NCBI RefSeq assembly: GCF_988243305.1
Contig: NZ_OZ547136.1
DNA: 64,000 nucleotides
Direction: 5' to 3' (one strand)
In this document: in pieces, positions 1 to 44,501 of the stretch
Position numbering within the stretch: the first letter of the stretch is position 1
Layout: the number at the start of each line of letters is the position of its first letter
Notes under the pieces: generated by a model
What the model saw: only the letters and a program-made list of their open reading frames with translations
Told to the model about the DNA's origin: nothing
Databases searched by the model: none
Program-made: the position numbers and the translations under genes

Positions 1-81
1 ATCCGCACCGGCAAAAAAAGCGTGCTGGATTATCTGTTGAAACCCTTTAATAAAGCACAGGAGGCGTTGCGCGAACGATGA
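1..81 (+). CDS. 3' end of upstream CDS, truncated by window start (26 codons plus stop)
   Basis: Open frame from position 1 to TGA at 79-81; the stop overlaps the cueR ATG (ATGA at 78-81). By synteny possibly ybaT, not verified. Confidence 0.4.
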
Positions 82-485
82 ACATTAGCGATGTAGCAAA
101 AATTACCGGCCTGACCAGCAAAGCCATTCGCTTCTATGAAGAGAAGGGGCTGGTGACGCCGCCGATGCGCAGCGAAAATGGTTATCGAACCTACACGCAG
201 CAGCATCTCAACGAACTGACCTTACTGCGCCAGGCGCGCCAGGTGGGCTTTAACCTGGAAGAGAGCGGCGAACTGGTGAATCTGTTTAACGACCCACAGC
301 GTCACAGCGCCGATGTAAAACGGCGCACGCTGGAGAAGGTAGCGGAGATCGAACGGCACATTGAGGAGCTGCAATCCATGCGCGACCAGCTACTGGCGCT
401 GGCGAATGCCTGCCCTGGTGATGACAGCGCCGACTGCCCGATTATCGAAAATCTCTCCGGCTGCTGTCATCATCGGGCGGGGTGA
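78..485 (+). CDS. cueR: MerR-family copper-responsive regulator CueR
   Basis: 135-aa ORF; N-terminal MerR HTH ([25 protein letters not shown]) and C-terminal Cys motif ([10 protein letters not shown]) recognised. Confidence 0.9.
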
Positions 486-488
486 AAA

Positions 489-692
489 TCAGTTAATCCC
501 CGTTTGCACCGAAAGAATATGCTGCAAACTTTCTACCATAATGCGCCCCGACTGAAATAAGCCTTCCTGGATTTCGTTGTTAACATTCACAGCGTGAACC
601 AGGGAGGCTAATAACACCACTTGCAAGAAGGCAAAAATAAACGCACCGATAATCATAATATGCGTCAGGGGGATTTTCCTTTGCTCCTTCAT
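489..692 (-). CDS. hypothetical small membrane protein (67 aa)
   Basis: ORF with one hydrophobic helix (IMIIGAFIFAFLQVVLLASLV); its ATG overlaps the stop of the upstream lipoprotein gene (ATGA at 689-692). Confidence 0.4.
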   Translation of the reverse strand: MKEQRKIPLTHIMIIGAFIFAFLQVVLLASLVHAVNVNNEIQEGLFQSGRIMVESLQHILSVQTGIN

Positions 693-1111
693 TTTAAATA
701 ACCCACAAACTGACCTTCTTTCATTAAGGCGACTTTTCCTGTGTGATGATAAACAATGACGTTATACAGACCTGACTGATAAACAGTGGCATCTTTATTG
801 TCTTCATCAATTGCACATAATGAATCATTGAGATAAGCAAAGTTTTTACTGCTCATTCTAAAGGTCATGCCAAATCCTTTATAAATGGCTTTCTTTGCCG
901 CCTGGGCATGTTGTGCGGCTTCTGCATTTTTAAATGCCTGCGCTTCGGATGCACTTAAAATAGCCGTCTGACGCTGTTGTTCTGCGAGATAACAGGTGTC
1001 ATGGCTGACGCCCTGCGCCTGGCAATCTGCGATGCGGGAAGTGGGTGAACTACAGCCAGCCAGTAATATAACCGCCAGCAGGGAAAACGATTTAATGGAG
1101 CTATTCATCAT
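689..1111 (-). CDS. putative lipoprotein (140 aa), co-transcribed downstream of the trimeric autotransporter
   Basis: Signal peptide with lipobox LLAGC; 53-bp gap to the upstream adhesin gene, same strand. Confidence 0.55.
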   Translation of the reverse strand: MMNSSIKSFSLLAVILLAGCSSPTSRIADCQAQGVSHDTCYLAEQQRQTAILSASEAQAFKNAEAAQHAQAAKKAIYKGFGMTFRMSSKNFAYLNDSLCAIDEDNKDATVYQSGLYNVIVYHHTGKVALMKEGQFVGYLK

Positions 1112-1164
1112 TGTTAACCTTAAATAATGTACGGAAAATTGCGAATAAGAAATTGCTGTTAAAA

Positions 1165-2181
1165 TTAGAACGAATATCCCACGCCGACACCCGCACCGAA
1201 ATCAGATTGTGTATCCGCAGAAATACCTGCTTTAAGTACCGTATGCGTTCCGGCATTAAAAGATGTTCCTACAGACACCGCAGATTCACCGTTGAACGTT
1301 CCCGCTCCCGCTGACACCATCATCAAGTCACCGGTTTTCACCTGTGGTTGTGAGGCGATAGCGATGGCAGATGCAGTTCCCGCATTGGCTTCTTTACGAT
1401 TGTCCTCAACTTCGTTTTTCAGAGAATCGAAATGGTTATTGAGCGTGTTAATTTGTTGGCTGTTATCTGCGACCCGTTTTTGCGTGTTGGTTAACTGTTG
1501 CTGCGTTTGTGCGGAATCTTGTCTCAGACTTTCAATTTGCTCATGTGCCTGGACAGACTTCTGCGCCAGACTTTGCATTTGTTTATCGTATTGAGCCCTT
1601 TCTTTTTGCTGTTGTGCTGCCACATCGGTTGTCAGTGCATTCATTTTCTGCCCTTGTTCCGTGGTAGTGCGCTGATTAGCCTCATTTTGAGCCGCCAGCC
1701 TGGCATTAATCATCTCCTGATAATGCGCGGTATTTTGCGTATCTCCAGTCGCGGCGAGCGTTTTTTGTGTGGCTACGATCTGCGCCTGTTGCTCTGTAAT
1801 TTGCGTTTGCTGGGCATCAGTTACCGCAGACTGTCGGGCGTTGATCATGCTCTGATAACGGGCGGTTGTCTGTACATCACCTGTAGCGGCAACGGTTTTT
1901 TGTCCTGCGTCAGGATCTGTCTGGACAGGGGGAGTCTGAGTGGTATCAGGTGTTTCAGAAGGGATGTAGTGATGTTCAGTCAAATAGGTATACGCAGCGG
2001 GGCTGTTGTCTGTGCGTTCTAAAAAGCGGGTAATCTTCTGCTCAATCTCCGATTGCGACATGCCAGAGTTAATGGCTGAAAGCTCTGTTGCCGCCGCTTC
2101 AATGGTATCACCAGCTAAAACAACAGGGCTGGATGTTGCTGAAATTATGAGTGCCAGTAAAGCTACGTTTACAGTTTTCAT
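1165..2181 (-). CDS. short trimeric autotransporter adhesin-like protein (YadA-type C-terminal anchor, coiled-coil stalk)
   Basis: 338-aa ORF; N-terminal signal peptide; C-terminus ...GESAVSVGTSF...FGAGVGVGYSF resembles the YadA membrane anchor; two tandem 45-aa stalk repeats. Confidence 0.7.
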   Translation of the reverse strand: MKTVNVALLALIISATSSPVVLAGDTIEAAATELSAINSGMSQSEIEQKITRFLERTDNSPAAYTYLTEHHYIPSETPDTTQTPPVQTDPDAGQKTVAATGDVQTTARYQSMINARQSAVTDAQQTQITEQQAQIVATQKTLAATGDTQNTAHYQEMINARLAAQNEANQRTTTEQGQKMNALTTDVAAQQQKERAQYDKQMQSLAQKSVQAHEQIESLRQDSAQTQQQLTNTQKRVADNSQQINTLNNHFDSLKNEVEDNRKEANAGTASAIAIASQPQVKTGDLMMVSAGAGTFNGESAVSVGTSFNAGTHTVLKAGISADTQSDFGAGVGVGYSF

Positions 2182-2214
2182 TCATTTTCTCTTGTTCAAA
2201 ATAAGTCGCATTAA

Positions 2215-2231
2215 TGTTTCTATAAGAAACA
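2215..2231. promoter_or_regulatory. inverted repeat TGTTTCT-ATA-AGAAACA in the adhesin/HTH divergent intergenic region
   Basis: Read directly; 7-bp arms; same half-site recurs at 2344-2362. Confidence 0.35.
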
Positions 2232-2343
2232 AATAATATTGTTTTAAGAAATAAACTGCGTTGCAATTTAATCGAAATCTACGCCGCCATTTGTGTGATG
2301 TAAAGCGCATTTTTGTCTGGTGTAAGCGTGAACACCACCAATA

Positions 2344-2362
2344 AGAAACAAAAAATGTTTCT
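2344..2362. promoter_or_regulatory. everted repeat AGAAACA-AAAAA-TGTTTCT in the same intergenic region
   Basis: Read directly; the 10-mer ATAAGAAACA occurs at both 2222-2231 and 2341-2350. Confidence 0.35.
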
Positions 2363-2547
2363 TATATAAATAAAATCGAAAATCATTTTGTGCTCTTTCA
2401 ATGTAAAAAAGAGTAAAGACTTGTTTTGATAAGCGAAATAAATTCTGTTTCTGGACTAAACGTGAAGCGGTTCCTGATGTGTGCTAAAATGCGTTTCTTT
2501 GATAAATCTCAATTTTTAAGAGGTTTACGCCAGGCAGGAAAATTTAA

Positions 2548-2910
2548 ATGAATGAATTTGAGAAGATTTTTAATGAAATGAATCTGGACCGGGCATTGCT
2601 ACCGATCCTTTTTCGTTCGAACCGGTCAACAGTGTGGAAATATTTAAGTGGCGATAGTACGGCTCCTGCCTCAGCTATGTCACTGATTATGCTGTTGCAG
2701 TTAATCCAGAAACGAAACCCCGATCTGTTAGCCGAATGGTTAACGCTTTCTGATTTCACCATTCCGCCAGAAGTTTACCTGGACCAGCCTGATTACTGGA
2801 AAGGGTGGGTGTATACGCAACACAAGGTCAATAAAAACGTCCTGGAATATCTAAAAAAACATTATCCGGATGAAGACCAAAAAAACATGAATAAAGGTAG
2901 TGACGAGTAA
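2548..2910 (+). CDS. hypothetical small protein (120 aa), possible HTH DNA-binding protein
   Basis: ORF divergent from the adhesin gene across a 366-bp AT-rich spacer; helix-turn-helix-like segment RALLPILFRSNRSTVWKYLSG. Confidence 0.45.
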   Translation: MNEFEKIFNEMNLDRALLPILFRSNRSTVWKYLSGDSTAPASAMSLIMLLQLIQKRNPDLLAEWLTLSDFTIPPEVYLDQPDYWKGWVYTQHKVNKNVLEYLKKHYPDEDQKNMNKGSDE

Positions 2911-2929
2911 TTTGCCAATGCCAGTTAAT

Positions 2930-3094
<165 letters not shown>

Positions 3095-5290: not shown

Positions 5291-6056
5291 TATTACTAAC
5301 GAATCATTGGCACTGGCATTAATGCTGGTGGTGGTGGCAATCTTAATTAGCCATAAAGAAAAACTGGCGCTGGAGAAAGATATTCTCTGGAGCGTCGGGC
5401 GCGCGATAATTCAGCTGATTATTGTCGGCTATGTGCTGAAGTATATTTTCAGCGTGGATGATGCCAGCCTGACATTATTGATGGTGTTATTTATCTGCTT
5501 TAATGCGGCGTGGAACGCGCAAAAACGCAGTAAATATATTGCTAAAGCTTTTATCTCATCGTTTATTGCCATTACGGTTGGTGCGGGAATTACCCTGGCG
5601 GTGCTGATTCTCTCCGGGTCGATTGAATTTATCCCGATGCAGGTGATCCCTATCGCCGGGATGATAGCCGGTAACGCCATGGTAGCGGTGGGGTTGTGTT
5701 ACAACAATTTAGGGCAACGGGTGATTAGCGAACAGCAACAGATTCAGGAGAAACTGAGTCTTGGCGCTACGCCGAAACAGGCTTCAGCGATATTGATTCG
5801 CGACAGTATTCGCGCGGCTTTAATTCCGACGGTCGATTCAGCAAAAACGGTTGGCTTAGTGAGTTTACCAGGAATGATGTCCGGGCTGATATTTGCCGGG
5901 ATTGATCCGGTGAAGGCGATTAAATATCAGATTATGGTGACCTTTATGCTGCTCTCAACCGCCAGCCTGTCGACCATTATTGCCTGCTATTTGACCTATC
6001 GTAAGTTTTACAATTCGCGCCACCAGTTGGTGGTGACGCAATTGAAGAAGAAATAA
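5277..6056 (+). CDS. fetB: ABC transporter permease FetB (YbbM)
   Basis: Polytopic membrane ORF; start chosen at MNSHNITNE (259 aa) rather than the upstream ATG at 5250. Confidence 0.85.
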   Translation: MNSHNITNESLALALMLVVVAILISHKEKLALEKDILWSVGRAIIQLIIVGYVLKYIFSVDDASLTLLMVLFICFNAAWNAQKRSKYIAKAFISSFIAITVGAGITLAVLILSGSIEFIPMQVIPIAGMIAGNAMVAVGLCYNNLGQRVISEQQQIQEKLSLGATPKQASAILIRDSIRAALIPTVDSAKTVGLVSLPGMMSGLIFAGIDPVKAIKYQIMVTFMLLSTASLSTIIACYLTYRKFYNSRHQLVVTQLKKK

Positions 6057-6062
6057 TGCAAT

Positions 6063-6090
6063 GCCGGATGCGCAGCATCGCATCCGGCGT
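6063..6090. terminator. hairpin between convergent fetB and ybbN (REP-like stem GCCGGATGCG...CGCATCCGGC)
   Basis: Inverted repeat read directly. Confidence 0.4.
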
Positions 6091-6118
6091 TGTGGTTCAT
6101 GTGCCGATCAACGGAAAC

Positions 6119-7015
<897 letters not shown>

Positions 7016-7843: not shown

Positions 7844-8459
7844 GATTTACTAAAGGCTGCAACTGCTTCGCCATCCAGTCGGCAATAAACGGCTGGGCGT
7901 CGCGGTTGGGATGAATACCGTCATCCTGCATCCATTGTGGTTTGAGGTAGACCTCTTCCATAAAAAAGGGCAGCAGCGGAACATCAAACTCTTTGGCGAG
8001 TTTGGGGTAAATGGCGCTAAAGGCTTCATTATAACGGCGACCATAGTTTGCAGGCAGACGTATTTGCATTAACAATGGTTCAGCGTTGGCGGCTTTGACA
8101 TCCTGCAAAATCTGGCGCAGCGTTTGCTCGGTTTGTTGTGGCTGAAAACCACGCAAACCGTCATTGCCGCCCAGTTCTACCAGCACCCAGCGCGGCTGAT
8201 GCTGTTTCAGCAGAGCCGGAAGGCGCGCCAGCCCTTGTTGCGAGGTGTCGCCGCTGATGCTGGCATTGACTACCGACGTTTTATTCTGCCACTTATCATT
8301 CAACAAGGCAGGCCAGGCCGCGCTGGCAGACATTCGATACCCGGCGCTCAGGCTATCACCCAGAATCAATAACGTGTCCGCTGCGGCGGCACGGAAGGTT
8401 AACAGGACCAGGAACAGGAAGGGCAAATGCCAGCGGAAAACATTGTTGAAGTTCATCAT
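7833..8459 (-). CDS. tesA: acyl-CoA thioesterase I / lysophospholipase L1 (SGNH hydrolase) TesA
   Basis: GDSLSAGY catalytic motif; start at MMNFNNVF (208 aa). Confidence 0.9.
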   Translation of the reverse strand: MMNFNNVFRWHLPFLFLVLLTFRAAAADTLLILGDSLSAGYRMSASAAWPALLNDKWQNKTSVVNASISGDTSQQGLARLPALLKQHQPRWVLVELGGNDGLRGFQPQQTEQTLRQILQDVKAANAEPLLMQIRLPANYGRRYNEAFSAIYPKLAKEFDVPLLPFFMEEVYLKPQWMQDDGIHPNRDAQPFIADWMAKQLQPLVNHDS

Positions 8460-9113
8460 CTTAAGAAGTCCGTCGGTCAGGGGGAGCATGAACTCTCCAT
8501 CCTCACCGGAGTTGAGCTGGTTGTCAAACGTGGCGAGACCATCGCACTGGTGGGCGAGTCGGGATCGGGTAAGTCAACCTTGCTGGCGATCCTCGCCGGG
8601 CTGGATGACGGCAGCAGTGGCGAAGTGAGTCTGGTGGGACAACCGCTACATAATATGGACGAAGAAGCGCGGGCAAAGTTGCGCGCGAAGCACGTCGGCT
8701 TTGTTTTTCAGTCATTTATGTTAATTCCTACCCTTAACGCGCTGGAAAACGTCGAGCTTCCGGCGCTGCTGCGCGGTGAGAGTAGCGCGGAAAGTCGTAA
8801 CGGAGCGAAAGCGTTGCTCGAACAGTTAGGGCTGGGTAAACGTCTTGATCATCTTCCGGCACAGCTTTCCGGCGGCGAACAGCAACGAGTGGCGCTGGCG
8901 CGAGCTTTTAATGGTCGACCTGATGTGCTGTTTGCCGACGAACCCACCGGCAACCTTGACCGCCAGACGGGCGATAAAATTGCCGACCTGCTGTTTTCCC
9001 TCAACCGTGAACATGGCACCACGTTGATTATGGTGACCCACGACCTGCAACTGGCGGCACGCTGCGACCGCTGCTTACGGCTGATGAACGGGCAATTGCA
9101 GGAGGAAGCATGA
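8427..9113 (+). CDS. ybbA: ABC transporter ATP-binding protein YbbA
   Basis: Walker A GESGSGKST, signature LSGGEQQR. Confidence 0.9.
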   Translation: MPAENIVEVHHLKKSVGQGEHELSILTGVELVVKRGETIALVGESGSGKSTLLAILAGLDDGSSGEVSLVGQPLHNMDEEARAKLRAKHVGFVFQSFMLIPTLNALENVELPALLRGESSAESRNGAKALLEQLGLGKRLDHLPAQLSGGEQQRVALARAFNGRPDVLFADEPTGNLDRQTGDKIADLLFSLNREHGTTLIMVTHDLQLAARCDRCLRLMNGQLQEEA

Positions 9114-11524
9114 TTGCACGTTGGTTCTGGCGCGAATGGCGTTCGCCGTCGCTATTAATTGTCTGGCTGGCGCTAAGCCTGGCGGTGGCCTGCGTGCTGG
9201 CGCTGGGCAATATCAGCGATCGCATGGAGAAGGGCTTAAGCCAACAAAGCCGGGAGTTTATGGCGGGCGATCGGGCGTTGCGCAGTTCGCGCGAAGTGCC
9301 GCAAGCGTGGCTGGAGGAAGCGCAAAAGCGCGGCCTGAAAGTCGGCAAGCAGCTGACTTTCGCCACCATGACATTTGCAGGCGACACACCGCAGCTGGCG
9401 AACGTCAAAGCGGTGGATGATATCTACCCGATGTATGGCGATCTGCAAACTAATCCCCCTGGCCTGAAACCGCAGGCGGGCAGCGTATTGCTGGCCCCAC
9501 GCCTGATGGCACTGCTTAACCTGAAAACAGGCGACACCATCGACGTGGGCGATGCCACCTTGCGGATTGCCGGAGAAGTGATTCAGGAACCGGATTCCGG
9601 TTTTAACCCCTTCCAGATGGCTCCGCGTCTGATGATGAATCTGGCGGATGTCGATAAAACCGGAGCCGTGCAGCCGGGGAGTCGGGTCACCTGGCGCTAT
9701 AAATTCGGCGGCAACGAGAACCAGCTCGACAGCTATGAGAAATGGTTGTTACCTCAGCTTAAACCCGAACAACGCTGGTACGGTCTGGAACAGGACGAAG
9801 GCGCGCTGGGGCGCTCGATGGAACGCTCGCAACAGTTCCTGCTGCTTTCGGCGCTTCTGACCTTGCTGCTGGCAGTGGCAGCGGTGGCGGTGGCGATGAA
9901 TCATTACTGTCGCAGTCGCTACGATCTGGTGGCGATCCTCAAAACGCTGGGGGCAGGGCGAGCGCAACTGCGTAAGCTAATCGTCGGTCAGTGGTTGATG
10001 GTGCTGGCGCTTTCAGCCGTTACCGGCGGGGCGATAGGCCTGTTGTTCGAAAACGTGTTGATGGTGCTGCTCAAGCCCGTTCTGCCTGCTGCACTACCGC
10101 CAGCCAGCCTCTGGCCGTGGCTGTGGGCGCTGGGCACCATGACAGTCATCTCGCTGCTGGTGGGGCTACGACCGTACCGCTTGTTGCTGGCAACGCAGCC
10201 TTTACGCGTATTGCGTAATGATGTGGTCGCGAACGTCTGGCCGCTGAAGTTTTATCTGCCGATTGTCAGTGTGGTGGTTGTGCTGCTGCTCGCCGGATTA
10301 ATGGGTGGCAGTATGCTGCTCTGGGCGGTGCTGGCGGGCGCGGTAGTGCTGGCTTTGCTGTGCGGTGTGCTGGGCTGGATGCTGCTGAATGTACTTCGCC
10401 GCATGACGCTGAAATCGCTACCTCTGCGCCTGGCGGTTAGCCGCCTGTTACGTCAGCCGTGGTCAACGTTAAGCCAGCTTTCGGCATTTTCGCTCTCCTT
10501 TATGCTGCTGGCGCTATTGCTGGTATTGCGTGGCGATCTGCTCGACCGCTGGCAACAGCAGCTACCGCCAGAAAGCCCGAACTACTTTTTAATCAACATC
10601 GCCACAGAACAGGTTACGCCGCTAAAAACGTTCCTCGCGGAACATCAGATAGTCCCGGAATCATTTTATCCGGTGGTGCGGGCGCGACTGACGGCGATTA
10701 ACGACAAGCCGACAGAAGGCAATGAAGATGAGGCGCTTAACCGCGAACTCAATCTTACCTGGCAAAATACGCGGCCCGATCATAATCCGATTGTCGCCGG
10801 TAACTGGCCGCCAAAAGCCGATGAAGTGTCGATGGAAGAGGGGCTGGCGAAACGCTTAAACGTTGCCCTCGGCGATACCGTGACTTTTATGGGCGATACC
10901 CAGGAGTTCCGCGCTAAAGTGACCAGCCTGCGCAAAGTGGACTGGGAAAGTCTGCGGCCTAATTTCTATTTTATTTTCCCGGAAGGGGCATTAGACGGGC
11001 AACCGCAGAGCAGGCTTACCAGTTTCCGCTGGGAGAATGGCAACGGCATGTTGACGCAACTCAACCGCCAGTTCCCGACCATTAGCCTGTTAGACATTGG
11101 CGCGATTTTAAAACAGGTCGGCCAGGTGCTGGAGCAGGTAAGTCGGGCGCTGGAGGTGATGGTGGTGCTGGTCACCGCCTGCGGTATGTTGCTGTTGCTG
11201 GCACAGGTGCAGGTGGGAATGCGTCAGCGCCATCAGGAGCTGGTGGTGTGGCGCACACTCGGTGCGGGGAAAAAACTGCTGCGCACCACGTTGTGGTGTG
11301 AGTTCGCCATGCTCGGGTTTGTTTCTGGCCTGGTGGCCGCAATTGGTGCGGAAACGGCGCTGGCAGTGTTGCAGGCGAAAGTGTTTGATTTCCCGTGGGA
11401 GCCAGACTGGCGATTGTGGATTGTGCTGCCGTGCAGCGGTGCACTGCTGCTGTCGCTTTTCGGCGGCTGGCTGGGCGCGCGGCTGGTTAAGGGTAAGGCG
11501 CTGTTCAGGCAGTTTGCGGGGTGA
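9110..11524 (+). CDS. ybbP: FtsX-like ABC transporter permease YbbP
   Basis: 804-aa polytopic membrane ORF, stop-start overlap with ybbA. Confidence 0.9.
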   Translation: MIARWFWREWRSPSLLIVWLALSLAVACVLALGNISDRMEKGLSQQSREFMAGDRALRSSREVPQAWLEEAQKRGLKVGKQLTFATMTFAGDTPQLANVKAVDDIYPMYGDLQTNPPGLKPQAGSVLLAPRLMALLNLKTGDTIDVGDATLRIAGEVIQEPDSGFNPFQMAPRLMMNLADVDKTGAVQPGSRVTWRYKFGGNENQLDSYEKWLLPQLKPEQRWYGLEQDEGALGRSMERSQQFLLLSALLTLLLAVAAVAVAMNHYCRSRYDLVAILKTLGAGRAQLRKLIVGQWLMVLALSAVTGGAIGLLFENVLMVLLKPVLPAALPPASLWPWLWALGTMTVISLLVGLRPYRLLLATQPLRVLRNDVVANVWPLKFYLPIVSVVVVLLLAGLMGGSMLLWAVLAGAVVLALLCGVLGWMLLNVLRRMTLKSLPLRLAVSRLLRQPWSTLSQLSAFSLSFMLLALLLVLRGDLLDRWQQQLPPESPNYFLINIATEQVTPLKTFLAEHQIVPESFYPVVRARLTAINDKPTEGNEDEALNRELNLTWQNTRPDHNPIVAGNWPPKADEVSMEEGLAKRLNVALGDTVTFMGDTQEFRAKVTSLRKVDWESLRPNFYFIFPEGALDGQPQSRLTSFRWENGNGMLTQLNRQFPTISLLDIGAILKQVGQVLEQVSRALEVMVVLVTACGMLLLLAQVQVGMRQRHQELVVWRTLGAGKKLLRTTLWCEFAMLGFVSGLVAAIGAETALAVLQAKVFDFPWEPDWRLWIVLPCSGALLLSLFGGWLGARLVKGKALFRQFAG

Positions 11525-11531
11525 TGTGATA

Positions 11532-11566
11532 AAGCCGTTTATTTCTACCTGGTAGATAAACGGCTT
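11532..11566 (+). terminator. hairpin downstream of ybbP (AAGCCGTTTAT...ATAAACGGCTT), left edge of the AT-rich island
   Basis: Inverted repeat read directly; weak T tract. Confidence 0.4.
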
Positions 11567-11692
11567 CATTATTAGTGCATCACGTAATTAAAAAATTGTT
11601 ATGCCCAAACATATAATTAATATACATTGCCAAATGAGTTGTTTATTAAGTTTATATTATATAATTAAAATCTATGGAATGGGTATAATCAT

Positions 11693-13696
11693 ATGGGTGA
11701 CATTATATATTTACGCATTACAGGGGAGCAACAAGGGGATATTTCTGCAGGATGCGGGACGCAAGCCTCTGTCGGGAATCGGTATCAACAGGGACATGAG
11801 GATGAAATATTTGTTTTTAGTTTTCATGGAGGAGTAAGTAACACAGGATTTGGCATTAATCATCAAACGATACAATTTTGTAAAATTCTCGATAAAAGCT
11901 CACCGCTGCTGATGAATTGCATTAATAATAACGAACGATGCCGTTTTGAGTTTTATTTTTATCGTATTAATAAATATGGAAAATGGGAAAGGTATTATTA
12001 TATTGAAGTCCGTGGTGCCACGTTAACTCAGAATCAGATTATAATAAAAGAAAATGAACTTGACTATCAATATATAACAATACACTACGAATATATCTAC
12101 TGTAAGCATCTTACAGCCAATACAGAATTTAGTTATTTACTCACACCTGAAAATTATAATCGCCTTTTCCCACCGACGCTCTTACCTGTTGAGGAAAAAC
12201 CAGAAATACCGCCTGAACGAGAAATTATCCTCACCATTGGTGTATTCTTTGATGGCACAGGAAACAATTTAACCAATACGAATTTACGTATGAGTTTTTT
12301 CCAACCAGAAACCTATGGTCTGGATGTCCAGGATTTGGCCTCGTTTAATAAACAATGTATGAGCAAGCAGGGTAAAACGGGATCCGGAGTACAGAGCTAT
12401 TTGAATTACTATACGAATATTCATTGGTTGAATGAGTTGTATCATAAAGATTCAGAAATAAATGCGGGGTCAGTAAAAATTCAACGTGAAATTTATATTG
12501 AAGGAATAGGGACTGAAAATAATAAAGCAGACTCTCTGATAGGAATGGGGTTAGGAAATAATGATACAGGGGTAATTGCCAAAACTGACCGTGCGATATC
12601 ACTGCTCCGTGAAAAACTGACGGAGATTGTTATTTCTTTAAAAGAGAATAAATTAGTAATTAAGTGTCTACAGTTTGACGTATTTGGCTTTAGTCGTGGG
12701 GCAGCAGCCGCACGGCACTTTACTAATCGCGTATTTGAGTGTGATCCCGTACTGATTAAAACCATTACGACGGCATTTCAGTCAGTTGAATATTTAGGTA
12801 AACCTTCCGGGGAAGTGCAATTTTTAGGTATTTTTGACACAGTTGCAGCCATCGGAGGGCTGATGGATGGTTTTGACCCTCATGATGGTAATAACTTTCC
12901 GGTAAAAGTGAAGTTACCGCCAGGTGTGGCCAAACATGTATTCCAGCTCACAGCAATGAACGAATGTCGCTATAACTTTTGCCTCAACAGCATAAAGGAA
13001 AGCTGGCCAGAATTAAGTTTCCCTGGATCTCATGCTGATATTGGTGGCGGCTATGACCCACTGGAAGATGAGTACCTGTTTTTAAGTCGCCCGGCGATTG
13101 CAACGGTACTGGGAAATGTGCCGGTGGAAGCGACAAGCGCTTACCAAAAAGCAGCACAGCAGGCAGAGTTATTGTGGCGCTATTCGACGCTGGCTCCGAT
13201 TCTGCCTTCTGGTGTCCTAAAAATTGAATCCAATATTGATGAAATAGCGTCGCCTGACCACTTAGGTAATGTGAGAAAACGGGTCGCTGCAGCGGTGACA
13301 TTTCGCAGAACGATCACCAATGACTGGTCAAAGATTGCGTTAAGAGTAATGTATGAAGTCGCTAAAGAGGCAGGGGTAGTATTTGATGCCATTTCTGTTG
13401 CTGATAAGGAATTAAAAGTTCCCAGTCATTTAAAGGTAATATGTGAAAAAGCAATTTCTCAGGGTAAAGCCGTTCTCTTGTGTACAGCGCCGATACCTTT
13501 TTCTGATGATGAGCTTAAAACCATTGGAAAATATATACACTGCTCTTCCAACTGGAATACCGTCGATTATCGATTAAAAAATAAGGTGTCTGCTGAAGTA
13601 TCAGCGTTTAAGACGTTTAGTTTTGTTAATCGGCCGGATGAAAATTGGACCAGAACTATATACGATATGCAAGGGAATAAACAAAATGGAATTTAA
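11693..13696 (+). CDS. Hcp-domain / DUF2235 (Tle1-like phospholipase) fusion protein, putative T6SS-delivered effector
   Basis: 667-aa ORF. Residues 1-~150 align with Hcp (IYLRITGEQQGDISAGCG...GHEDE...SPLLMNCI); FFDGTGN at residues 185-191; GFSRG (GxSxG) with Ser334; FDTVAAIG and HADIGGGY motifs; AT-rich relative to flanks. Confidence 0.8.
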   Translation: MGDIIYLRITGEQQGDISAGCGTQASVGNRYQQGHEDEIFVFSFHGGVSNTGFGINHQTIQFCKILDKSSPLLMNCINNNERCRFEFYFYRINKYGKWERYYYIEVRGATLTQNQIIIKENELDYQYITIHYEYIYCKHLTANTEFSYLLTPENYNRLFPPTLLPVEEKPEIPPEREIILTIGVFFDGTGNNLTNTNLRMSFFQPETYGLDVQDLASFNKQCMSKQGKTGSGVQSYLNYYTNIHWLNELYHKDSEINAGSVKIQREIYIEGIGTENNKADSLIGMGLGNNDTGVIAKTDRAISLLREKLTEIVISLKENKLVIKCLQFDVFGFSRGAAAARHFTNRVFECDPVLIKTITTAFQSVEYLGKPSGEVQFLGIFDTVAAIGGLMDGFDPHDGNNFPVKVKLPPGVAKHVFQLTAMNECRYNFCLNSIKESWPELSFPGSHADIGGGYDPLEDEYLFLSRPAIATVLGNVPVEATSAYQKAAQQAELLWRYSTLAPILPSGVLKIESNIDEIASPDHLGNVRKRVAAAVTFRRTITNDWSKIALRVMYEVAKEAGVVFDAISVADKELKVPSHLKVICEKAISQGKAVLLCTAPIPFSDDELKTIGKYIHCSSNWNTVDYRLKNKVSAEVSAFKTFSFVNRPDENWTRTIYDMQGNKQNGI

Positions 13697-14345
13697 TATA
13701 AAATTACTGTTTGTTATTACGTCTATGGTTCTTAACTTTAACGCAGCAGCGAAAGAAAAAATATCGTTGCTTGCACCCTATGATGAGTGGTATTTCAATT
13801 TTTTCTACCCTGATTCCCTACCAGCAAAAGTTACCTATGTGGAATTATTAGATACCGATGGCATCTATTATCAGTTCAGAACGCTGGCCAGTACTAATGC
13901 CAGTCCAGGAAGTGTTGGACAATGGAGCGAGAAAGTATCAGGGATGTCGTCAGTTTTTAATAAAGCCAAAAACCCACCAATGTCTATCCATTTTTGCTGG
14001 GATTCAGTGATTGATAAAAAAGTGTATGAAACCTGGATAACGCTGGCGGGAGACGTCTGGAAATTGATGCTCACACCTTATTCACCACCAGGCGATGGCA
14101 GTGAAAAATATTATCTACAGTATCTGTTAATCGGACTGGCTCCGGAAGGAAAAGTACGGGTATGGCTTGATAAACGTGACAAACCCAATATTCGCCTGAC
14201 GGATAAGCAGATTCTGATAGAAACGTTTTCAGGTGAAAAAATGGAAATGTGTAAAGGAATTTCCCGGCATGATTTTTCTCTTGGAGACGATGAATATGTT
14301 CTTGAGTTTATCAAAGATAAAAAATATCCCTATGGTAACTGGTAA
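13686..14345 (+). CDS. putative periplasmic immunity protein, copy 1 (219 aa, signal peptide)
   Basis: Start overlaps effector stop by 11 bp; cleavable signal peptide without lipobox; paralogue of next gene. Confidence 0.6.
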   Translation: MEFNIKLLFVITSMVLNFNAAAKEKISLLAPYDEWYFNFFYPDSLPAKVTYVELLDTDGIYYQFRTLASTNASPGSVGQWSEKVSGMSSVFNKAKNPPMSIHFCWDSVIDKKVYETWITLAGDVWKLMLTPYSPPGDGSEKYYLQYLLIGLAPEGKVRVWLDKRDKPNIRLTDKQILIETFSGEKMEMCKGISRHDFSLGDDEYVLEFIKDKKYPYGNW

Positions 14346-14351
14346 GTAACA

Positions 14352-15020
14352 ATGAAAATAATAGCTAAAATAATTTATAGATTAACCATTGCGTTAATGA
14401 TAGCCGGATCAGTCCAGACAGCAGCGAAAGAAAAAATATCGTTGCTTGCACCCTATGATGAGTGGTATTTCCTTTTTTTCTACCCTAATGCGCTACCGGC
14501 ACGAGTTACCTATGTAGAACTATTGGACACTGATGGTATCTATTATCAGTTCAGAACGCTGGATGCTACCGCTCCGAGTTCCACAACTATTGATCAATGG
14601 AGAGATAATCTTCGGGTTGGGGTGTTATCATTCAATAAAGCTAAAAATCCCCCTATGTCTATCCATTTCTGCTGGGATTCAGTGATTGATAAAAAAGTGT
14701 ATGAAACCTGGATCACGCTGGCGGGAAAAGTCTGGAAATTGATGCTAACACCTTATTCACCACCAGGTGGTGGCAGTGAAAAGTATTATCTGCGGTATCT
14801 GTTAATCGGGCTGGCTCCGGAAGGGAAAATAGGAGTGTGGCTGGAGAAACCTGATAAACCCAATATTCGCCTGACCGATAAGCAGATTCTGATAGAAACG
14901 GTTTCAGGTGAAAAAATGGAAATGTGTAAAGGCCGAAGTGTCTATAAAAATGGGTATTCTTACCCGGAAAGTACAAAAAACTTTATCAAAGATAAAAAAT
15001 ATCCCTATGGCAACTGGTAG
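14352..15020 (+). CDS. putative periplasmic immunity protein, copy 2 (222 aa, signal peptide)
   Basis: Tandem paralogue of 13686-14345 with long identical peptide blocks (KEKISLLAPYDEWYF; KAKNPPMSIHFCWDSVIDKKVYETWITLAG) and divergent middle and C-terminus. Confidence 0.6.
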   Translation: MKIIAKIIYRLTIALMIAGSVQTAAKEKISLLAPYDEWYFLFFYPNALPARVTYVELLDTDGIYYQFRTLDATAPSSTTIDQWRDNLRVGVLSFNKAKNPPMSIHFCWDSVIDKKVYETWITLAGKVWKLMLTPYSPPGGGSEKYYLRYLLIGLAPEGKIGVWLEKPDKPNIRLTDKQILIETVSGEKMEMCKGRSVYKNGYSYPESTKNFIKDKKYPYGNW

Positions 15021-15071
15021 TTAACCAGTTGCACAATTTCTTAAAGAGGCACGGAAAAGCATTTTTGTGGG

Positions 15072-16193
<1,122 letters not shown>

Positions 16194-16246: not shown

Positions 16247-17173
16247 TTAACTGCGTGGGTTGCCGAAAATTTCTAAAAATCCGCTGATTTCCGGCCTGCG
16301 CTGGGTAAACAAGGTCACAATATCTTCTACCGCTTTGCCGCTGCCAAATTTGCGCCATGCCAGACTCAATGGCGAAGGGGGGCGCATCGTTGGGATTACC
16401 CGGCTGACCAGTTGTTGATTATCGATCATTGACTGGCAAAGTGATTTTGGCAAAAAACCAATGCCAACGCCCGCCAGATGGGCGGCGATTTTCGTTTCCA
16501 TATCGGGAACAATAATCTCTTTTTGCCCCGGCAATCGCCAGGCGACGCGTTTGGTTAGTGTGCGGGCGCTGTCTTCAATATTAACCGCCGGAAAGCGCCG
16601 CAACTGCGCTTCTGTTAGCGGCTCTTCAACGTTCGCCAGCGGATGATCCGCCGCCATGACAAAGCGCCATTGCACCGATCCTAAGGGATCAAGACTAAAG
16701 GTATTTGCCAGCGCCTCGGTTCCCGTGACGCCGATAGCCAGTGAAAAACCTTCGTATAATAGCGAATCCCAGACGCCCATATAGATTTGTCGGGAGATGT
16801 GAAACTGGGTAAAGGGGTAACGTTCATTCAGCCACGCCAGCAACTGGGCGACGGCCTGGGGGTTGTAGAGCAGGTTGTTGATGACAATATTCACCTGGCG
16901 TTCCACGCCATCATTCACCTGTTGCAGCTCGCTGGGCATACTTTCCAGCCAGCTCAGCCAGTCTCTGGCCTGGGAAAGTAGATGCTCGCCAGCCGCTGTC
17001 AATGTCACGCTGCGAGTCGTGCGGAAAAACAGCGCTACTCCGGTATTCTCTTCCAGAAGTTTAATGCGATAACTGATTGTCGCCGTGGTTTTACATAATC
17101 GTTCTGCCGCTTTTGAAAAACTTCCTGTTTCAGCAACCGCAATGAAAGTCCGCAAGGTTTCTGGATCGAACAT
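16247..17173 (-). CDS. allS: LysR-family activator of the allantoin regulon AllS
   Basis: LysR HTH N-terminus; divergent from allA. Confidence 0.85.
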
Positions 17174-17280
17174 CTTCAGGTATCCCCTTTTAAATCCGCA
17201 AGTTGCGTGATTTTCTTATCCTCTGATTTATCAGTATTTTTACATGATAACCCTGTTCAATTTGTGGACTAAATCTAGTT

Positions 17281-17297
17281 TTGGAAAAATATTCCAA
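17281..17297. promoter_or_regulatory. AllR-type operator TTGGAA-AAATA-TTCCAA (allS-allA intergenic)
   Basis: Inverted repeat read directly; same architecture as the site upstream of gcl. Confidence 0.55.
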
Positions 17298-17402
17298 CTT
17301 TTGTATTGATGTTGTTCTCTTAAGGTTTTAGATTGCCTGTTATTGAAACCAAGCTGACCGGTCGGCAGTGGTTGAACGGAATTATGTTACAAGGATAAAA
17401 AG

Positions 17403-31534: not shown

Positions 31535-33202
31535 ATGATCCACGCCTTTATTAAAAAAGGGTGTTTTCAGGATTCTGTCAGTTTAATGATTATTTCACGA
31601 AAACTCAGCGAATCAGAAAATGTTGATGATGTTTCCGTAATGATGGGTACGCCCGCCAATAAAGCGTTATTAGATACCACAGGTTTCTGGCATGACGATT
31701 TTAATAACGCCACGCCGAACGATATTTGCGTGGCAATTCGTAGCGAAGCGGCGGATGCGGGGATCGCGCAGGCGATTATGCAACAGCTTGAAGAGGCGCT
31801 AAAACAACTGGCGCAGGGTTCAGGCAGCAGCCAGGCGTTGACGCAGGTGCGTCGCTGGGACAGTGCCTGTCAGAAATTACCCGATGCCAGTCTGGCGCTG
31901 ATTTCAGTGGCTGGCGAGTATGCGGCGGAGCTGGCTAATCAGGCGCTGGATCGCAACCTCAACGTGATGATGTTCTCCGATAACGTCACGCTGGAAGATG
32001 AAATCCAGCTCAAAACCCGCGCACGCGATAAAGGCTTGCTGGTGATGGGGCCGGACTGCGGTACGTCGATGATTGCCGCCACGCCGCTGGCTTTTGCTAA
32101 CGTGATGCCGGAAGGCAATATTGGCGTCATTGGCGCTTCCGGTACCGGGATTCAGGAGCTGTGTTCGCAGATTGCGCTGGCAGGTGAGGGAATTACCCAC
32201 GCGATTGGTCTTGGCGGGCGCGACCTCAGCCGTGAAGTGGGCGGCATCAGTGCGCTAACGGCGCTGGAAATGTTAAGCGCCGACGCGAAAAGCGAAGTGC
32301 TGGCATTTGTTTCAAAACCACCTGCCGAAGCTGTGCGTCTGAAAATTGTTAATTCCATGAAAGCAACCGGCAAACCGACGGTGGCGCTGTTTTTAGGTTA
32401 TACCCCGGCGGTGGCCCGCGACGAGAATGTCTGGTTTGCCTCCTCGCTTGATGAGGCCGCACGCCTGGCTTGCCTGCTTTCACGCGTCACGGCGCGACGT
32501 AACGCAATAGCACCTGTCAGCAGCGGATTTATTTGCGGTTTGTATACCGGCGGTACGCTGGCCGCCGAAGCGGCGGGATTACTTGCCGGACAGCTTGGCG
32601 TGGAAGCCGATGATGCCCATCATCACGGCATGATGCTCGACGCCGATGGTCACCAGATTATTGACCTCGGCGATGATTTCTACACCGTCGGGCGTCCCCA
32701 TCCGATGATCGACCCGACCTTACGCAACCTGTTAATTGCCGATCTCGGCGCTAAACCGCAAGTGCGCGTGTTGCTGCTTGATGTCGTGATTGGCTTCGGT
32801 GCGACCGCCGATCCTGCCGCCTCGCTGGTGAGCGCCTGGCAAAAAGCCTGTGCCGCGCGTTCTGACAGCCAACCGCTGTACGCCATTGCCACGGTGACAG
32901 GCACTGAACGTGACCCGCAATGCCGCTCGCAGCAAATCGCCACGCTGGAAGATGCGGGGATTGCGGTAGTGAGTTCGCTGCCGGAAGCCACCTTGCTGGC
33001 GGCGGCGCTGATTCATCCGCTCTCGTCTGCCACACAGCCACATACACCGTCATTACTGGAAAACGTCGCCGTGATTAACATTGGATTACGCAGCTTTGCG
33101 CTGGAGCTACAAAGCGCCAGCAAACCGGTTGTGCATTACCAATGGTCGCCAGTCGCCGGCGGCAATAAAAAACTGGCTCGTTTATTAGAACGTTTGCAAT
33201 AA
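31535..33202 (+). CDS. fdrA: FdrA (acyl-CoA synthetase-like)
   Basis: 555-aa ORF; synteny. Confidence 0.85.
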   Translation: MIHAFIKKGCFQDSVSLMIISRKLSESENVDDVSVMMGTPANKALLDTTGFWHDDFNNATPNDICVAIRSEAADAGIAQAIMQQLEEALKQLAQGSGSSQALTQVRRWDSACQKLPDASLALISVAGEYAAELANQALDRNLNVMMFSDNVTLEDEIQLKTRARDKGLLVMGPDCGTSMIAATPLAFANVMPEGNIGVIGASGTGIQELCSQIALAGEGITHAIGLGGRDLSREVGGISALTALEMLSADAKSEVLAFVSKPPAEAVRLKIVNSMKATGKPTVALFLGYTPAVARDENVWFASSLDEAARLACLLSRVTARRNAIAPVSSGFICGLYTGGTLAAEAAGLLAGQLGVEADDAHHHGMMLDADGHQIIDLGDDFYTVGRPHPMIDPTLRNLLIADLGAKPQVRVLLLDVVIGFGATADPAASLVSAWQKACAARSDSQPLYAIATVTGTERDPQCRSQQIATLEDAGIAVVSSLPEATLLAAALIHPLSSATQPHTPSLLENVAVINIGLRSFALELQSASKPVVHYQWSPVAGGNKKLARLLERLQ

Positions 33203-33211
33203 GGGGTTCCC

Positions 33212-34471
33212 ATGTTTACATCAGTGGCGCAAGCCAATGCTGCGGTTATCGAACAAATTCGTCGCGCTCGTCCACACTGGCTGGATGTGCAACCGGCTTC
33301 TTCACTTATCAGCGAACTAAACGAGGGCAAAACACTGCTTCACGCCGGGCCGCCAATGCGCTGGCAGGAGATGACCGGACCCATGAAAGGGGCATGTGTG
33401 GGCGCATGTCTGTTTGAAGGCTGGGCGAAAGATGAAGCGCAGGCGCTGGCAATACTGGAGCAGGGGGAAGTGAACTTCATTCCTTGTCACCATGTGAATG
33501 CCGTCGGGCCAATGGGCGGCATTACTTCTGCCAGTATGCCGATGCTGGTGGTCGAGAACGTGACCGACGGCAACCGGGCGTACTGCAACCTCAACGAAGG
33601 TATCGGCAAAGTGATGCGTTTTGGCGCTTACGGCGAAGATGTCCTGACTCGCCATCGCTGGATGCGCGATGTGTTAATGCCGGTATTAAGCGCGGCGCTG
33701 GGGCGCATGGAGCACGGTATCGATCTCACGGCAATGATGGCGCAGGGCATTACCATGGGCGATGAGTTCCATCAACGCAATATTGCTTCCTCAGCACTGT
33801 TAATGCGTACGCTGGCCCCACAAATTGCTCGCCTCGATCATGATAAACAGCACATTGCGGAAGTGATGGATTTCCTCAGCGTGACCGATCAGTTCTTCCT
33901 CAACCTCGCGATGGCTTACTGCAAGGCGGCGATGGATGCTGGCGCGATGATCCGCGCAGGCAGCATCGTCACGGCAATGACCCGCAACGGCAATATGTTC
34001 GGGATTCGGGTAAGCGGGCTGGGCGAACGCTGGTTTACTGCGCCTGTAAACACTCCGCAAGGTCTGTTTTTCACCGGCTTCTCGCAGGATCTGGCGAACC
34101 CGGATATGGGCGATAGCGCGATTACCGAAACCTTTGGTATTGGCGGAGCCGCAATGATCGCAGCGCCTGGCGTAACGCGCTTTGTCGGTGCGGGTGGCAT
34201 GGAAGCGGCCAGAACCGTTTCTGAAGAGATGGCGGAAATTTACCTTGAGCGCAATATGCAGTTGCAGATCCCAAGCTGGGATTTTCAGGGCGCGTGCCTG
34301 GGGCTGGATATTCGTCGCGTGGTAGAAACCGGCATTACGCCACTCATCAATACCGGTATCGCCCATAAAGAGGCGGGGATCGGGCAGATTGGCGCAGGCA
34401 CTGTGCGGGCACCGCTGGCGTGCTTTGAACAGGCGCTGGAAGCACTGGCTGAAAGCATGGGGATTGGTTGA
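33212..34471 (+). CDS. ylbE: DUF1116-family protein YlbE
   Basis: 419-aa ORF; synteny. Confidence 0.8.
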
Positions 34472-34481
34472 GGAACGCACA

Positions 34482-35297
34482 ATGACGATCATCCATCCTC
34501 TGCTTGCCAGCCGTAGTGCACCGAATTATCGCCAGTCCTGGCGGTTAGCGGGCGTGTGGCGGCGGGCGATTAACCTGATGACGGAAAGCTGTGAATTGTT
34601 AACACTACATCGTCAGGGTAGTGGTTTCGGCCCCGGAGGATGGGTGCTTCGCCGCGCGCAATTCGATGCGTTATGCGGTGGATTATGCGGCAATGAACAA
34701 CCGCAGGTTGTGGCACAAGGGATTCGCCTCGGGCGTTTCACGGTTAAACAGCCACAGCGTTATTGTTTGCTGCGTATTACGCCGCCTGCGCATCCTCAAC
34801 CGCTTGCAGCTGCATGGATGCAACGCGCGGAGGAAACCGGGCTTTTCGGGCCACTGGCGTTGGCGGCAGGCGATCCGCTTCCTGCTGAATTACGCCAGTT
34901 TCGCCACTGTTTTCAGGCCGCGCTCAATGGCGTGAAGACTGACTGGCGGCACTGGCTGGGTAAAGGTCCGGGATTAACGCCAAGTCATGATGACACGCTG
35001 AGCGGAATGCTGCTGGCGGCCTGGTATTATGGCGCTTTAGATGCGCGCTCCGGTCGCCCGTTTTTTGCCTGTTCCGACAATCTTCAACTCGTTACCACAG
35101 CGGTGAGCGTCAGTTATTTACGTTATGCCGCGCAAGGATATTTCGCCTCGCCACTCCTGCACTTTGTCCATGCTCTGAGTTGCCCGAAACGTACCGCTGT
35201 TGCGATTGATTCGCTGCTGGCGCTGGGGCATACGTCAGGGGCAGATACGCTGCTGGGGTTCTGGCTTGGTCAACAATTATTACAAGGAAAACCATGA
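34482..35297 (+). CDS. ylbF: YlbF
   Basis: Start at [10 protein letters not shown] (271 aa); stop-start overlap with next gene. Confidence 0.75.
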
Positions 35298-41671: not shown

Positions 41672-42538
41672 TTACTCACCCTGTGGATCATGATATTCAA
41701 CGCACGCCTGTAGCGTGTTTTCAATCAGCGTGGCAACCGTCATTGGGCCAACGCCGCCGGGAACAGGCGTAATGTATGAGGCGCGTTTAGCCGCGTCTTC
41801 AAACACGACGTCGCCCACAACTTTGCCATTTTCCAGACGGTTGATGCCAACATCAATCACAATTGCGCCTTCTTTGATCCAGTCACCAGGAATAAAGCCC
41901 GGCTTGCCGACGGCAACGATCAACAGATCGGCATTTTCTACGTGGTGACGCAGATTTTTAGTGAAACGGTGAGTCACGGTGGTGGTGCAACCTGCCAGCA
42001 GCAGTTCCATGCTCATTGGGCGACCGACGATATTCGATGCGCCAATCACCACGGCGTTAAGGCCGAAGGTATCAATGTTGTAACGCTCAAGCAGCGTGAC
42101 GATACCGCGCGGGGTGCAGGGACGCAGACGTGGCGCGCGCTGGCACAGACGACCGACGTTGTAAGGATGGAAACCGTCCACGTCTTTGTCCGGATGAATA
42201 CGTTCCAGCACTTTGACGTTATCAATACCCGCCGGTAACGGCAGTTGAACCAGAATGCCATCGATGGTGTTGTCGGCATTCAGCGCATCGATAAGCTCCA
42301 ACAGCTCCGCTTCGCTGGTGGTTTCCGGGAGGTCATAAGAGCGGGAGACGAACCCGACTTCTTCACAAGCCTTGCGTTTGCTTGCGACATAAATTTGCGA
42401 TGCAGGGTTACTACCCACCAGCACAACGGCCAGTCCTGGTGCCCGCAGTCCGGCTGCAATACGCGCCTGAACTTTTTGAGCAACTTCAGAGCGCACCTGC
42501 TGCGCAATCGTTTTACCGTCAATAATCTTTGCTGCCAT
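41672..42538 (-). CDS. folD: bifunctional methylenetetrahydrofolate dehydrogenase/cyclohydrolase
   Basis: 288-aa ORF; FolD family. Confidence 0.95.
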
Positions 42539-44471: not shown

Positions 44472-44501
44472 CCGAATCATCTGACAATATCAGAGCTAAT
44501 T

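Follow-up and report, generated by a model that had tools for sequence, protein, structure and literature searches.

A probable stand-alone type VI effector-immunity cassette of the Hcp-ET2 class at the multi-state ybbP-mnmH junction of Escherichia coli

The junction between the core genes ybbP and mnmH is an accessory site at which the chromosomes of Escherichia coli carry different toxin genes or none. In the stretch of contig NZ_OZ547136.1 analysed here (64,000 nucleotides, hereafter the window), the two genes are separated by a gap of 3,547 bp (11525-15071 in the map of open reading frames, ORFs), which contains exactly three credible genes. The first, hcp-ET2, encodes a fusion of Hcp, the tube subunit of a type VI secretion system (T6SS), with a Tle1-type phospholipase, and the other two, eti2a and eti2b, encode proteins of an immunity family. 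This cassette belongs to the already described and experimentally characterised Hcp-ET2/ETI2 class. Since it has the features of that class and the same island is annotated in hundreds of RefSeq E. coli genomes, the finding is real but already known. Modestly interesting additions to it are the four-state polymorphism of the junction, the trans-species age of the cassette and its patchy co-occurrence with a usable T6SS.

Gene content and composition of the cassette

The first gene of the cassette links two protein families in a single reading frame. Its N-terminal part (about aa 1-150) is an Hcp domain, recognised by the Pfam family T6SS_HCP (PF05638, aa 6-138, E=2e-12) and by NCBIfam TIGR03344 (TssD) with 125 bits against a cutoff of 58.9, and the best Hcp matches in PDB reach E=7.6e-16. 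The N-terminal Hcp (TssD) domain of a specialised Hcp is thus recognisable, and the protein is predicted to join the tube. Specialised Hcp proteins are further marked by a C-terminal toxin extension of more than 60 aa, which here measures 500 aa and is homologous to Tle1. A Pro-rich linker at about aa 160-175 (…LLPVEEKPEIPPERE…) connects the Hcp domain with a Tle1 phospholipase domain of 55.6 kDa (aa 173-667), standing in place of the N-terminal ~29-45 residues of free Tle1 proteins. The toxin domain is the DUF2235/Tle1 domain of Hcp-ET2 (Tle1-like catalytic domain, PF09994), and aa 173-661 match the structure of Tle1 from enteroaggregative E. coli (EAEC) with E=6e-123 (6sjl_D; 6SJL/6SKI). Ser334 (in GFSRG, from aa 332), Asp382 (FDTV, 381) and His447 (SHADIGGGY, 446) align with Ser197, Asp245 and His310 of EAEC Tle1, which reportedly form its catalytic triad (Flaugnatti et al. 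2016). Both the GxSxG motif and the Ser-Asp-His triad of the Tle1-4 lipases can therefore be assigned by alignment. The fusion has no signal peptide, and its length and start agree with the RefSeq annotation of genome NZ_CP148331.1.

Directly downstream of the lipase gene lie two tandem copies of a DUF2931 gene, DUF2931 being the domain of the immunity protein Tli1 of EAEC (bioRxiv 10.1101/2024.03.05.583533). The start of eti2a overlaps the end of hcp-ET2 by 11 nt, which suggests that toxin and immunity expression are coupled. The copies form a tandem duplication with a period of 675 nt, visible as direct repeats D1-D3 that recur at this spacing with 83-93% identity. Both proteins begin with a hydrophobic, signal-peptide-like segment ending in AAA/TAA-KEK. 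No cysteine precedes residue 104 in Eti2a, whose only cysteines are 104 and 189, or residue 107 in Eti2b, and neither protein has the lipobox of a Tli1 lipoprotein. Eti2a and Eti2b are therefore predicted to be exported without lipidation and to be soluble in the periplasm. No NCBIfam model exists for them, and a sequence search of PDB with the DUF2931 protein found nothing. In NZ_CP148331.1, the RefSeq start of the second DUF2931 gene lies 45 nt later (14397 instead of 14352), giving a product of 207 aa from which most of the predicted signal peptide is gone; the orthologues in sequence type 131 (ST131) are annotated from the upstream ATG, and the difference is probably an inconsistency of annotation.

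Table 1. Features of the ybbP-mnmH interval and its flanks (window coordinates)
Feature	Coordinates	Strand	Description and basis
ybbA	8427-9113		ORF map
ybbP	9110-11524	+	ABC transporter permease, left core flank; 804-aa ORF, named ybbP in colinear genomes
Terminator-like hairpin	11529-11569	+	Right after the ybbP stop; inverted repeat I6, 14-nt arms, 93% complementary; -19.1 kcal/mol, z = -4.2
Candidate sigma-70 promoter	11588-11617	+	TTAAAA-18-TATAAT; consensus scan, 10/12 matches
hcp-ET2	11693-13696	+	Hcp + Tle1/DUF2235 fusion, 667 aa, 75 kDa; Pfam, NCBIfam and PDB matches
eti2a	13686-14345	+	DUF2931 (Tli1-family) immunity gene, 219 aa; 71% identity to eti2b; RefSeq DUF2931 family protein
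eti2b	14352-15020	+	Second DUF2931 immunity paralog, 222 aa; Pfam DUF2931 PF11153, E=1.5e-26
Terminator-like hairpin	15010-15032	+	Across the eti2b stop codon; scan match GCAACTGGTAGTTAACCAGTTGC then ACAATTTCTT; -15 kcal/mol, z = -2.9
mnmH	15072-16178	-	tRNA 2-selenouridine synthase, right core flank; ORF map

The interval is markedly AT-rich. Its GC content is 39.2%, whereas the adjoining 5-kb segments have 56.6% (left) and 52.2% (right), and it is the lowest of all 3,547-nt sliding windows of the 64 kb (median 51.3%, 5th percentile 44.6%). At third codon positions, GC (GC3) is 0.29-0.39 in the cassette genes, 0.69 in ybbP and 0.56 in mnmH. When the region was compared with the K-12 locus by blastn, only the flanks aligned, on the left up to 11533 and on the right from 15091; no homology to rhs was found in the interval, and all three ORFs belong to other families. 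The ORF map shows no integrase, insertion sequence (IS) or transposase ORF in the interval, and a repeat scan found no repeats bounding it. Of the hallmarks of a mobile genomic island, the interval shows the atypical composition but has no gene for an integrase or transposase, no tRNA or att site and no direct repeats on its two sides. The initial annotation, which was made from the sequence alone, had described an AT-rich block at these coordinates with an Hcp-lipase fusion and two immunity-like genes and with no Rhs, integrase or IS sequence, and this description proved accurate throughout.

Other features of the interval are of lesser weight. The left arm of the hairpin that follows ybbP is common to the empty allele of the junction described below, and its right arm is particular to the cassette allele. 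Promoter-like matches are not enriched over shuffled sequences, and the match upstream of hcp-ET2 is accordingly a candidate only. A search against Rfam at E≤1 gave no RNA family in 11300-15300. A 78-aa ORF (11601-11837) and the antisense ORFs within the cassette were taken as non-coding by-products of the AT-rich sequence. A reading as an anti-phage defence system was dropped, as PADLOC gave no family for any of the three proteins. Beyond mnmH, the ORF map continues with allS, allA and allR. Other low-GC stretches of the window are the sfm/fim fimbrial region at about 43000-47100 (~44-45% over 3.5-kb windows) and the allS-allA intergenic region at 17000-17400 (~40%), and the cassette is lower in GC than either. 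Variation is also seen at the left end of the window (about 1-3000): 9-11% of the first 25 kb is missing from many genomes, the first ~2.1 kb is absent from one, and NZ_CP148331.1 carries at the equivalent position a gene for a YadA-family autotransporter adhesin and several hypothetical genes, beside cueR.

Allelic states of the junction and diversification of the cassette

The junction was compared across 5,426 complete RefSeq E. coli genomes, the rhsD and cassette states being called at ≥80% coverage and the share of short alleles being taken from an evenly spaced sample of 58 genomes. K-12 carries rhsD-ybbC-ylbH-ybbD-ylbI-ylbG, 7.3 kb in length, between ybbP and selU/mnmH. A K-12-type rhsD locus, variable at its far end, is the commonest state (2,766 genomes, 51%). 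The cassette, always chromosomal, is found in 569 genomes by coverage of the interval and in 573 by lipase-domain DNA (10.5%), and it lies between ybbP and mnmH in every case inspected. A short interval of 55-900 bp is found in about 36% of the sample, and this class is of two kinds. One is a truly empty junction of 58 bp, as in SCU-122, and the other, seen in HS and 23CRST027, holds a gene that RefSeq calls a DinQ type I toxin. The junction thus has at least four states, namely cassette, Rhs locus, DinQ-like gene and empty, and the DinQ-like gene is a third, unrelated toxin type at this site. The suggestions that K-12 bears rhsD here and that the site hosts alternative toxin cassettes are therefore upheld, and the cassette is an accessory element that most genomes do not have. 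In the literature library searched, no paper connecting ybbP or mnmH with Hcp-ET2 was found. The DinQ-like gene of the two inspected short alleles that exceed the empty junction in length (6049-6204 of the HS locus, 6250-6405 of the other) encodes 51 aa, is annotated as 'damage-inducible type I toxin DinQ' and lies beside a repetitive extragenic palindrome (REP)-like element.

The borders of the alleles give some indication of how the states have replaced one another. In SCU-122 the first 31 nt past the ybbP stop codon match the cassette allele and then diverge, and the last ~30 nt of its empty allele (5832-5889) match the right junction of the HS type. This chimeric structure suggests that the empty allele is not an untouched ancestral site but arose when allele types recombined or a deletion occurred between them. 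Site-specific insertion was also considered, as the 7-nt motif CTGGTAG occurs at the left junction and at the end of eti2b, but was rejected because deletion between the two copies fails to give the empty allele. At the right-hand side the variable segment takes in the last codons of mnmH (15072-15090). As the homology breaks inside these codons, the C-terminus of MnmH differs between alleles, reading ...KAYACGY* in the window, ...KTYACGY* in ST131, ...KAR* in K-12 and ...KAQ* in HS and SCU-122. MnmH is 368 aa long in cassette carriers and 364 aa in K-12, HS and the empty alleles.

The allele of the window is rare, being matched at ≥99% identity in only one of the 5,426 genomes. The nearest cassette, that of NZ_CP148331.1 (strain Z1323HEC0462), differs by 2 nt; identity is 98.1% in the adjacent ybbP and about 98.9% over the wider window. 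A near-identical cassette next to a more diverged ybbP points to exchange between lineages by homologous recombination via the core flanks. Additionally, no complete genome is closer than ~98.9% overall, and the source therefore belongs to a sparsely sampled lineage of E. coli. Compared with the common ST131 allele, the fusion shows 34 aa differences, of which three are in the Hcp domain. Most of the lipase replacements fall in two patches, at aa 248-266 and at aa 308-319, and hypervariability of these patches is seen in Escherichia whittamii, Pseudocitrobacter and Rahnella too. The ratio of nonsynonymous to synonymous divergence (dN/dS) reaches 0.50 for the lipase domain and 0.25 for the Hcp domain, compared with 0.03-0.13 in the flanks. 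Each immunity protein is a mosaic, made up of a signal segment and of middle and C-terminal segments that vary, and between the window and ST131 copies a and b have exchanged their C-terminal modules. Furthermore, the number of DUF2931 genes among carriers is 2 or 3, with three in the ST131 genome NZ_CP063774.1. From this pattern we infer that toxin and immunity have diversified together.

Outside E. coli the cassette is sparsely distributed. In a wider scan with one genome per prokaryotic species, the full-length fusion was found in only two further species, E. whittamii and Pseudocitrobacter faecalis. In E. whittamii a protein with 90% identity is encoded at precisely this junction, within the same boundaries, and ybbP is followed by the same hairpin, there with a T-run behind it. 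The fusion of P. faecalis is 60% identical and is accompanied by two DUF2931 genes; it lies 4.4 kb downstream of ybbP, and a porin gene and three further genes stand between ybbP and the fusion. From our own reading of the translated ORFs, we take these three to resemble an ABC transporter of the MetQNI type. The closest unfused lipase relatives are about 46-48% identical. One of them, in Rahnella laticis, stands in the canonical TssM-TssA-VgrG-Tle1-DUF2931 arrangement, and in Tatumella and Xenorhabdus one to four DUF2931 genes follow the lipase gene. The fusion stands in place of the ~45-aa N-terminus of these homologues. With unfused relatives in a VgrG-linked cluster, the fusion looks like a VgrG-cargo lipase that switched its carrier to Hcp. 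A 'distant' blastn search with the lipase-domain DNA returned only orthologous cassettes and did not reach the diverged tle1 genes encoded in T6SS clusters.

Delivery, function and age of the cassette

No T6SS core gene lies in the 64-kb window, as the initial annotation had stated. Over its whole length the window is colinear with NZ_CP148331.1, where the annotation lists no genes other than housekeeping, allantoin, purine, fimbrial, nfr and cus ones. Three cassette carriers were inspected by hand for a T6SS elsewhere. In NZ_CP148331.1 a complete system, with none of the 13 core genes missing, is encoded some 350 kb away from the cassette at the aspV tRNA locus; it consists of tssA,B,C,E,F,G,H,J,K,L,M together with two hcp, two vgrG, PAAR, tagH, vasI and vasL. 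Carrier A21 has the same complete cluster, and a cluster of the aspV type is found in 552 of the 5,426 genomes. It is named here by its locus; the label T6SS-2 is avoided, as the review consulted does not define that name by locus. With the 159-aa Hcp of the aspV cluster, the Hcp domain of the fusion shares 35% identity along its full length (96 bits). Its identity to the Hcp of the metV T6SS-1 of ST131 is 25% (38 bits), and the structure of EAEC T6SS-1 Hcp1 (4HKH) is matched with E=0.17 only. In the third carrier, the ST131 genome NZ_CP063774.1, the aspV site is empty and tssM of the metV T6SS-1, the only T6SS found in it, is split by ISEc12, a disruption published for ST131 clade C (PMC10711316). 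The toxin is thus probably not deployable in at least one carrier of the ST131 lineage, and the combination of an orphan cassette with a system able to fire it is not universal among carriers. For the strain of the window itself, dependence on a distal T6SS is plausible from the colinear relatives.

Some neighbouring observations concern these clusters. The aspV cluster of A21 (locus 32942-35035) and the metV T6SS-1 of ST131 (locus 42248-44116) encode different 'Tle1 domain-containing' effectors of their own, and in each case a DUF4123 adaptor gene and one to three DUF3304 genes stand ahead of the effector gene. A carrier can thus possess two lipases of the Tle1 type whose immunity proteins belong to different families. 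A Flag-2 lateral flagellar cluster (lafA, lafU, flgE-L, flhA) lies beside the aspV T6SS of NZ_CP148331.1, at 1.96-2.00 Mb between dinB and yafL; it is also present in ST131 and has been deleted in A21 down to an flhA fragment and lafU.

Taken together, the interval is very probably a stand-alone ('orphan') T6SS effector-immunity cassette of the Hcp-ET2 class. Its first gene would supply an Hcp tube subunit to which the Pro-rich linker joins an almost complete phospholipase A of the Tle1 type, with the fusion supplanting the N-terminal segment of free Tle1 that may contribute to VgrG binding. A T6SS encoded elsewhere would build a few of the fused subunits into its tube, and on firing the lipase would reach the periplasm of an adjacent Gram-negative bacterium and hydrolyse membrane phospholipids there. 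The two DUF2931 proteins, exported to the periplasm of the producer, would neutralise toxin arriving from sister cells. At the population level, the cassette would be one of the alleles in a long-standing multi-state polymorphism and would pass from lineage to lineage when the core flanks undergo homologous recombination, with the surface patches of the toxin and the modules of the immunity proteins still diversifying.

Several points weigh against this explanation. The Hcp domain is at most 35% identical to any canonical Hcp examined. The lumen of the Hcp ring measures 40 Å (PMC10433429), and a domain of 55.6 kDa cannot fit it. With a lipase too large for the lumen, a tube could probably take up no more than a few of the fused subunits, which might sit in mixed rings or at its end. 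The source strain is represented here by the window alone, a compatible T6SS being seen in its relatives, of which the best is only ~98.9% identical in the flanks. The ST131 carrier has no functional T6SS at aspV or metV, the loci checked, and still keeps an intact toxin gene. Moreover, identity with the experimentally tested Hcp-ET2 is judged from domain architecture alone, and the promoter and terminators are consensus matches only.

The foremost alternative, which is unlikely although it retains some weight, is that the cassette serves mainly as a defensive island. The DUF2931 genes would guard against the Tle1-type lipases of competitors, and the toxin gene would merely be carried along, undeployable wherever no compatible T6SS is present. 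The ST131 genome fits this proposal, as it keeps the cassette with three DUF2931 copies despite an empty aspV site and a split tssM (PMC10711316). Since the toxin of this carrier is probably undeployable, the immunity genes may be the selected part. The variable copy number and shuffled modules of the immunity genes, as well as the poor relationship of the fused Hcp domain to T6SS-1 Hcp, also speak for it. Against it, tle1-domain DNA is present at ≥80% coverage in all 573 matching genomes, the alleles of the window, NZ_CP148331.1 and ST131 are all full-length at 667 aa, the window and ST131 have the same catalytic motifs, and dN/dS is below 1 in both domains of the fusion. Furthermore, the nearest relative and A21 have the complete aspV T6SS, and the loss of tssM in ST131 clade C is only recent (PMC10711316).

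The AT-rich composition might also suggest, as a sharp block of this kind usually does, a recent foreign genomic island, placed in a junction that was ancestrally empty or occupied by rhsD. GC of 39% against 52-57% in the flanks, the correspondingly low GC3 and the presence of the cassette in only about 10% of genomes would agree with such an origin. The divergence data nevertheless make it very improbable. E. whittamii has the same junctions, and its region is colinear with the window from ybbA to mnmH with 92% nucleotide identity. Synonymous divergence (dS) between the two is 0.13-0.36 for the cassette genes and 0.25-0.28 for ybbA, ybbP and mnmH; with these values so similar, cassette and flanks have been diverging for roughly equal times. 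For the window compared with the ST131 allele, dS is 0.03-0.07 in the cassette and 0.04-0.16 in the flanks, and since it is no higher in the cassette, the low GC is not a sign of recent import. The lack of an integrase, IS, tRNA or flanking direct repeat and the diverged copy near ybbP in Pseudocitrobacter likewise argue against recent arrival. Judged from this comparison of sequences, the cassette is an old resident of the site, and it was probably present before E. coli and E. whittamii split. It is similarly hard to credit that the fusion is a T6SS-independent or host-directed phospholipase, for example one freed by lysis and acting on eukaryotic membranes: EAEC Tle1 did lyse ~50% of macrophages in vitro (PMC9860674) and no T6SS genes adjoin the cassette, but the Hcp domain scores above the TssD cutoff and has no known role outside the T6SS tube, the paired immunity genes with predicted periplasmic products point to antibacterial use, and the fusion has no signal peptide.

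On a broader and more tentative proposal, the ybbP-mnmH junction may possibly be a trans-species balanced 'weapon slot', in which Hcp-Tle1 was ancestral in Escherichia and was later replaced by the Rhs, DinQ-like and empty states. Incompatibility groups would be forming within the cassette as the two surface-loop patches of the lipase are replaced and the immunity modules are shuffled, and ST131, the most heavily sampled carrier lineage inspected, would be keeping the toxin without a T6SS able to fire it. If true, this would imply selection on something other than attack. In any case, one junction with three unrelated toxin types or nothing, and with a cassette kept across a species boundary, offers a clean natural system for the maintenance and exchange of toxin and immunity alleles. 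An ST131 carrier with an intact toxin, a broken metV T6SS and an empty aspV locus raises the question of why undeployable weapons persist, and the cassette also raises that of how a 56-kDa payload can ride on an Hcp subunit.

Relation to known toxin-immunity systems

The K-12 rhsD element shares with the cassette its site, its remoteness from T6SS core genes and its layout of a polymorphic toxin followed by an immunity-type gene (ybbC, PF15631). The rhsD locus also varies at its far end between strains, as shown by a coverage of ~94-95% in O157-type alleles. However, the two belong to unrelated families without sequence homology, and they differ in composition and in length (7.3 kb versus 3.5 kb).

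Tle1 is a phospholipase with A1 and A2 activities (PLA1/PLA2) that acts in the periplasm and is neutralised by Tli1 (PMC9860674). The EAEC Tle1-Tli1 pair, a cargo effector of T6SS-1 with its immunity protein, resembles the cassette closely: the toxin domains align over nearly the whole length with conserved triad residues, and an immunity gene of the same DUF2931 family lies immediately downstream of the toxin. The carrier is different, in that EAEC Tle1 is a free protein loaded on the C-terminal TTR domain of VgrG1 and encoded beside vgrG in the T6SS cluster. In the fusion of the window, the first ~29 residues of EAEC Tle1 are swapped for Hcp and the linker, and no vgrG is found in the window, so the arrangement is not that of a cargo-type Tle1. 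Moreover, EAEC Tli1 is an outer-membrane lipoprotein, whereas no lipobox cysteine is present in the immunity proteins of the window, which are predicted to be soluble periplasmic proteins.

Hcp proteins with C-terminal toxins, Hcp-ET1 to 5, have been described in Enterobacteriaceae with more than 350 examples (PMC6730261, PMC6099711, PMC8262886, PMC10433429). Hcp-ET1, an HNH-DNase delivered by T6SS2, and Hcp-ET3/4, with pyocin S3/colicin DNase domains, have the same specialised-Hcp design and tandem immunity genes, with three duplicated immunity genes in the Hcp-ET3-4 of UTI89. Their toxins, however, are small nucleases acting in the cytoplasm, unlike the 56-kDa, presumably periplasm-acting lipase of the window, which is too large for the Hcp lumen.

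The closest counterpart is the Hcp-ET2/ETI2 class, which is said to go back to Ma et al. 2017 (Virulence 8:1189), the protein tested there reportedly being A31K_02346 of strain PE321. It has the same order of an N-terminal Hcp, a C-terminal DUF2235/Tle1 phospholipase and one or more cognate immunity genes, and it is likewise encoded away from the T6SS core cluster. Hcp-ET2 (Hcp with DUF2235) is reported as an antibacterial effector, T6SS-dependent interbacterial antagonism having been shown in E. coli (reviewed in PMC6730261 and PMC6099711). As far as sequence can tell, the cassette of the window has every feature of this class, of which it represents a rare variant, 34 residues away from the common ST131-type allele.

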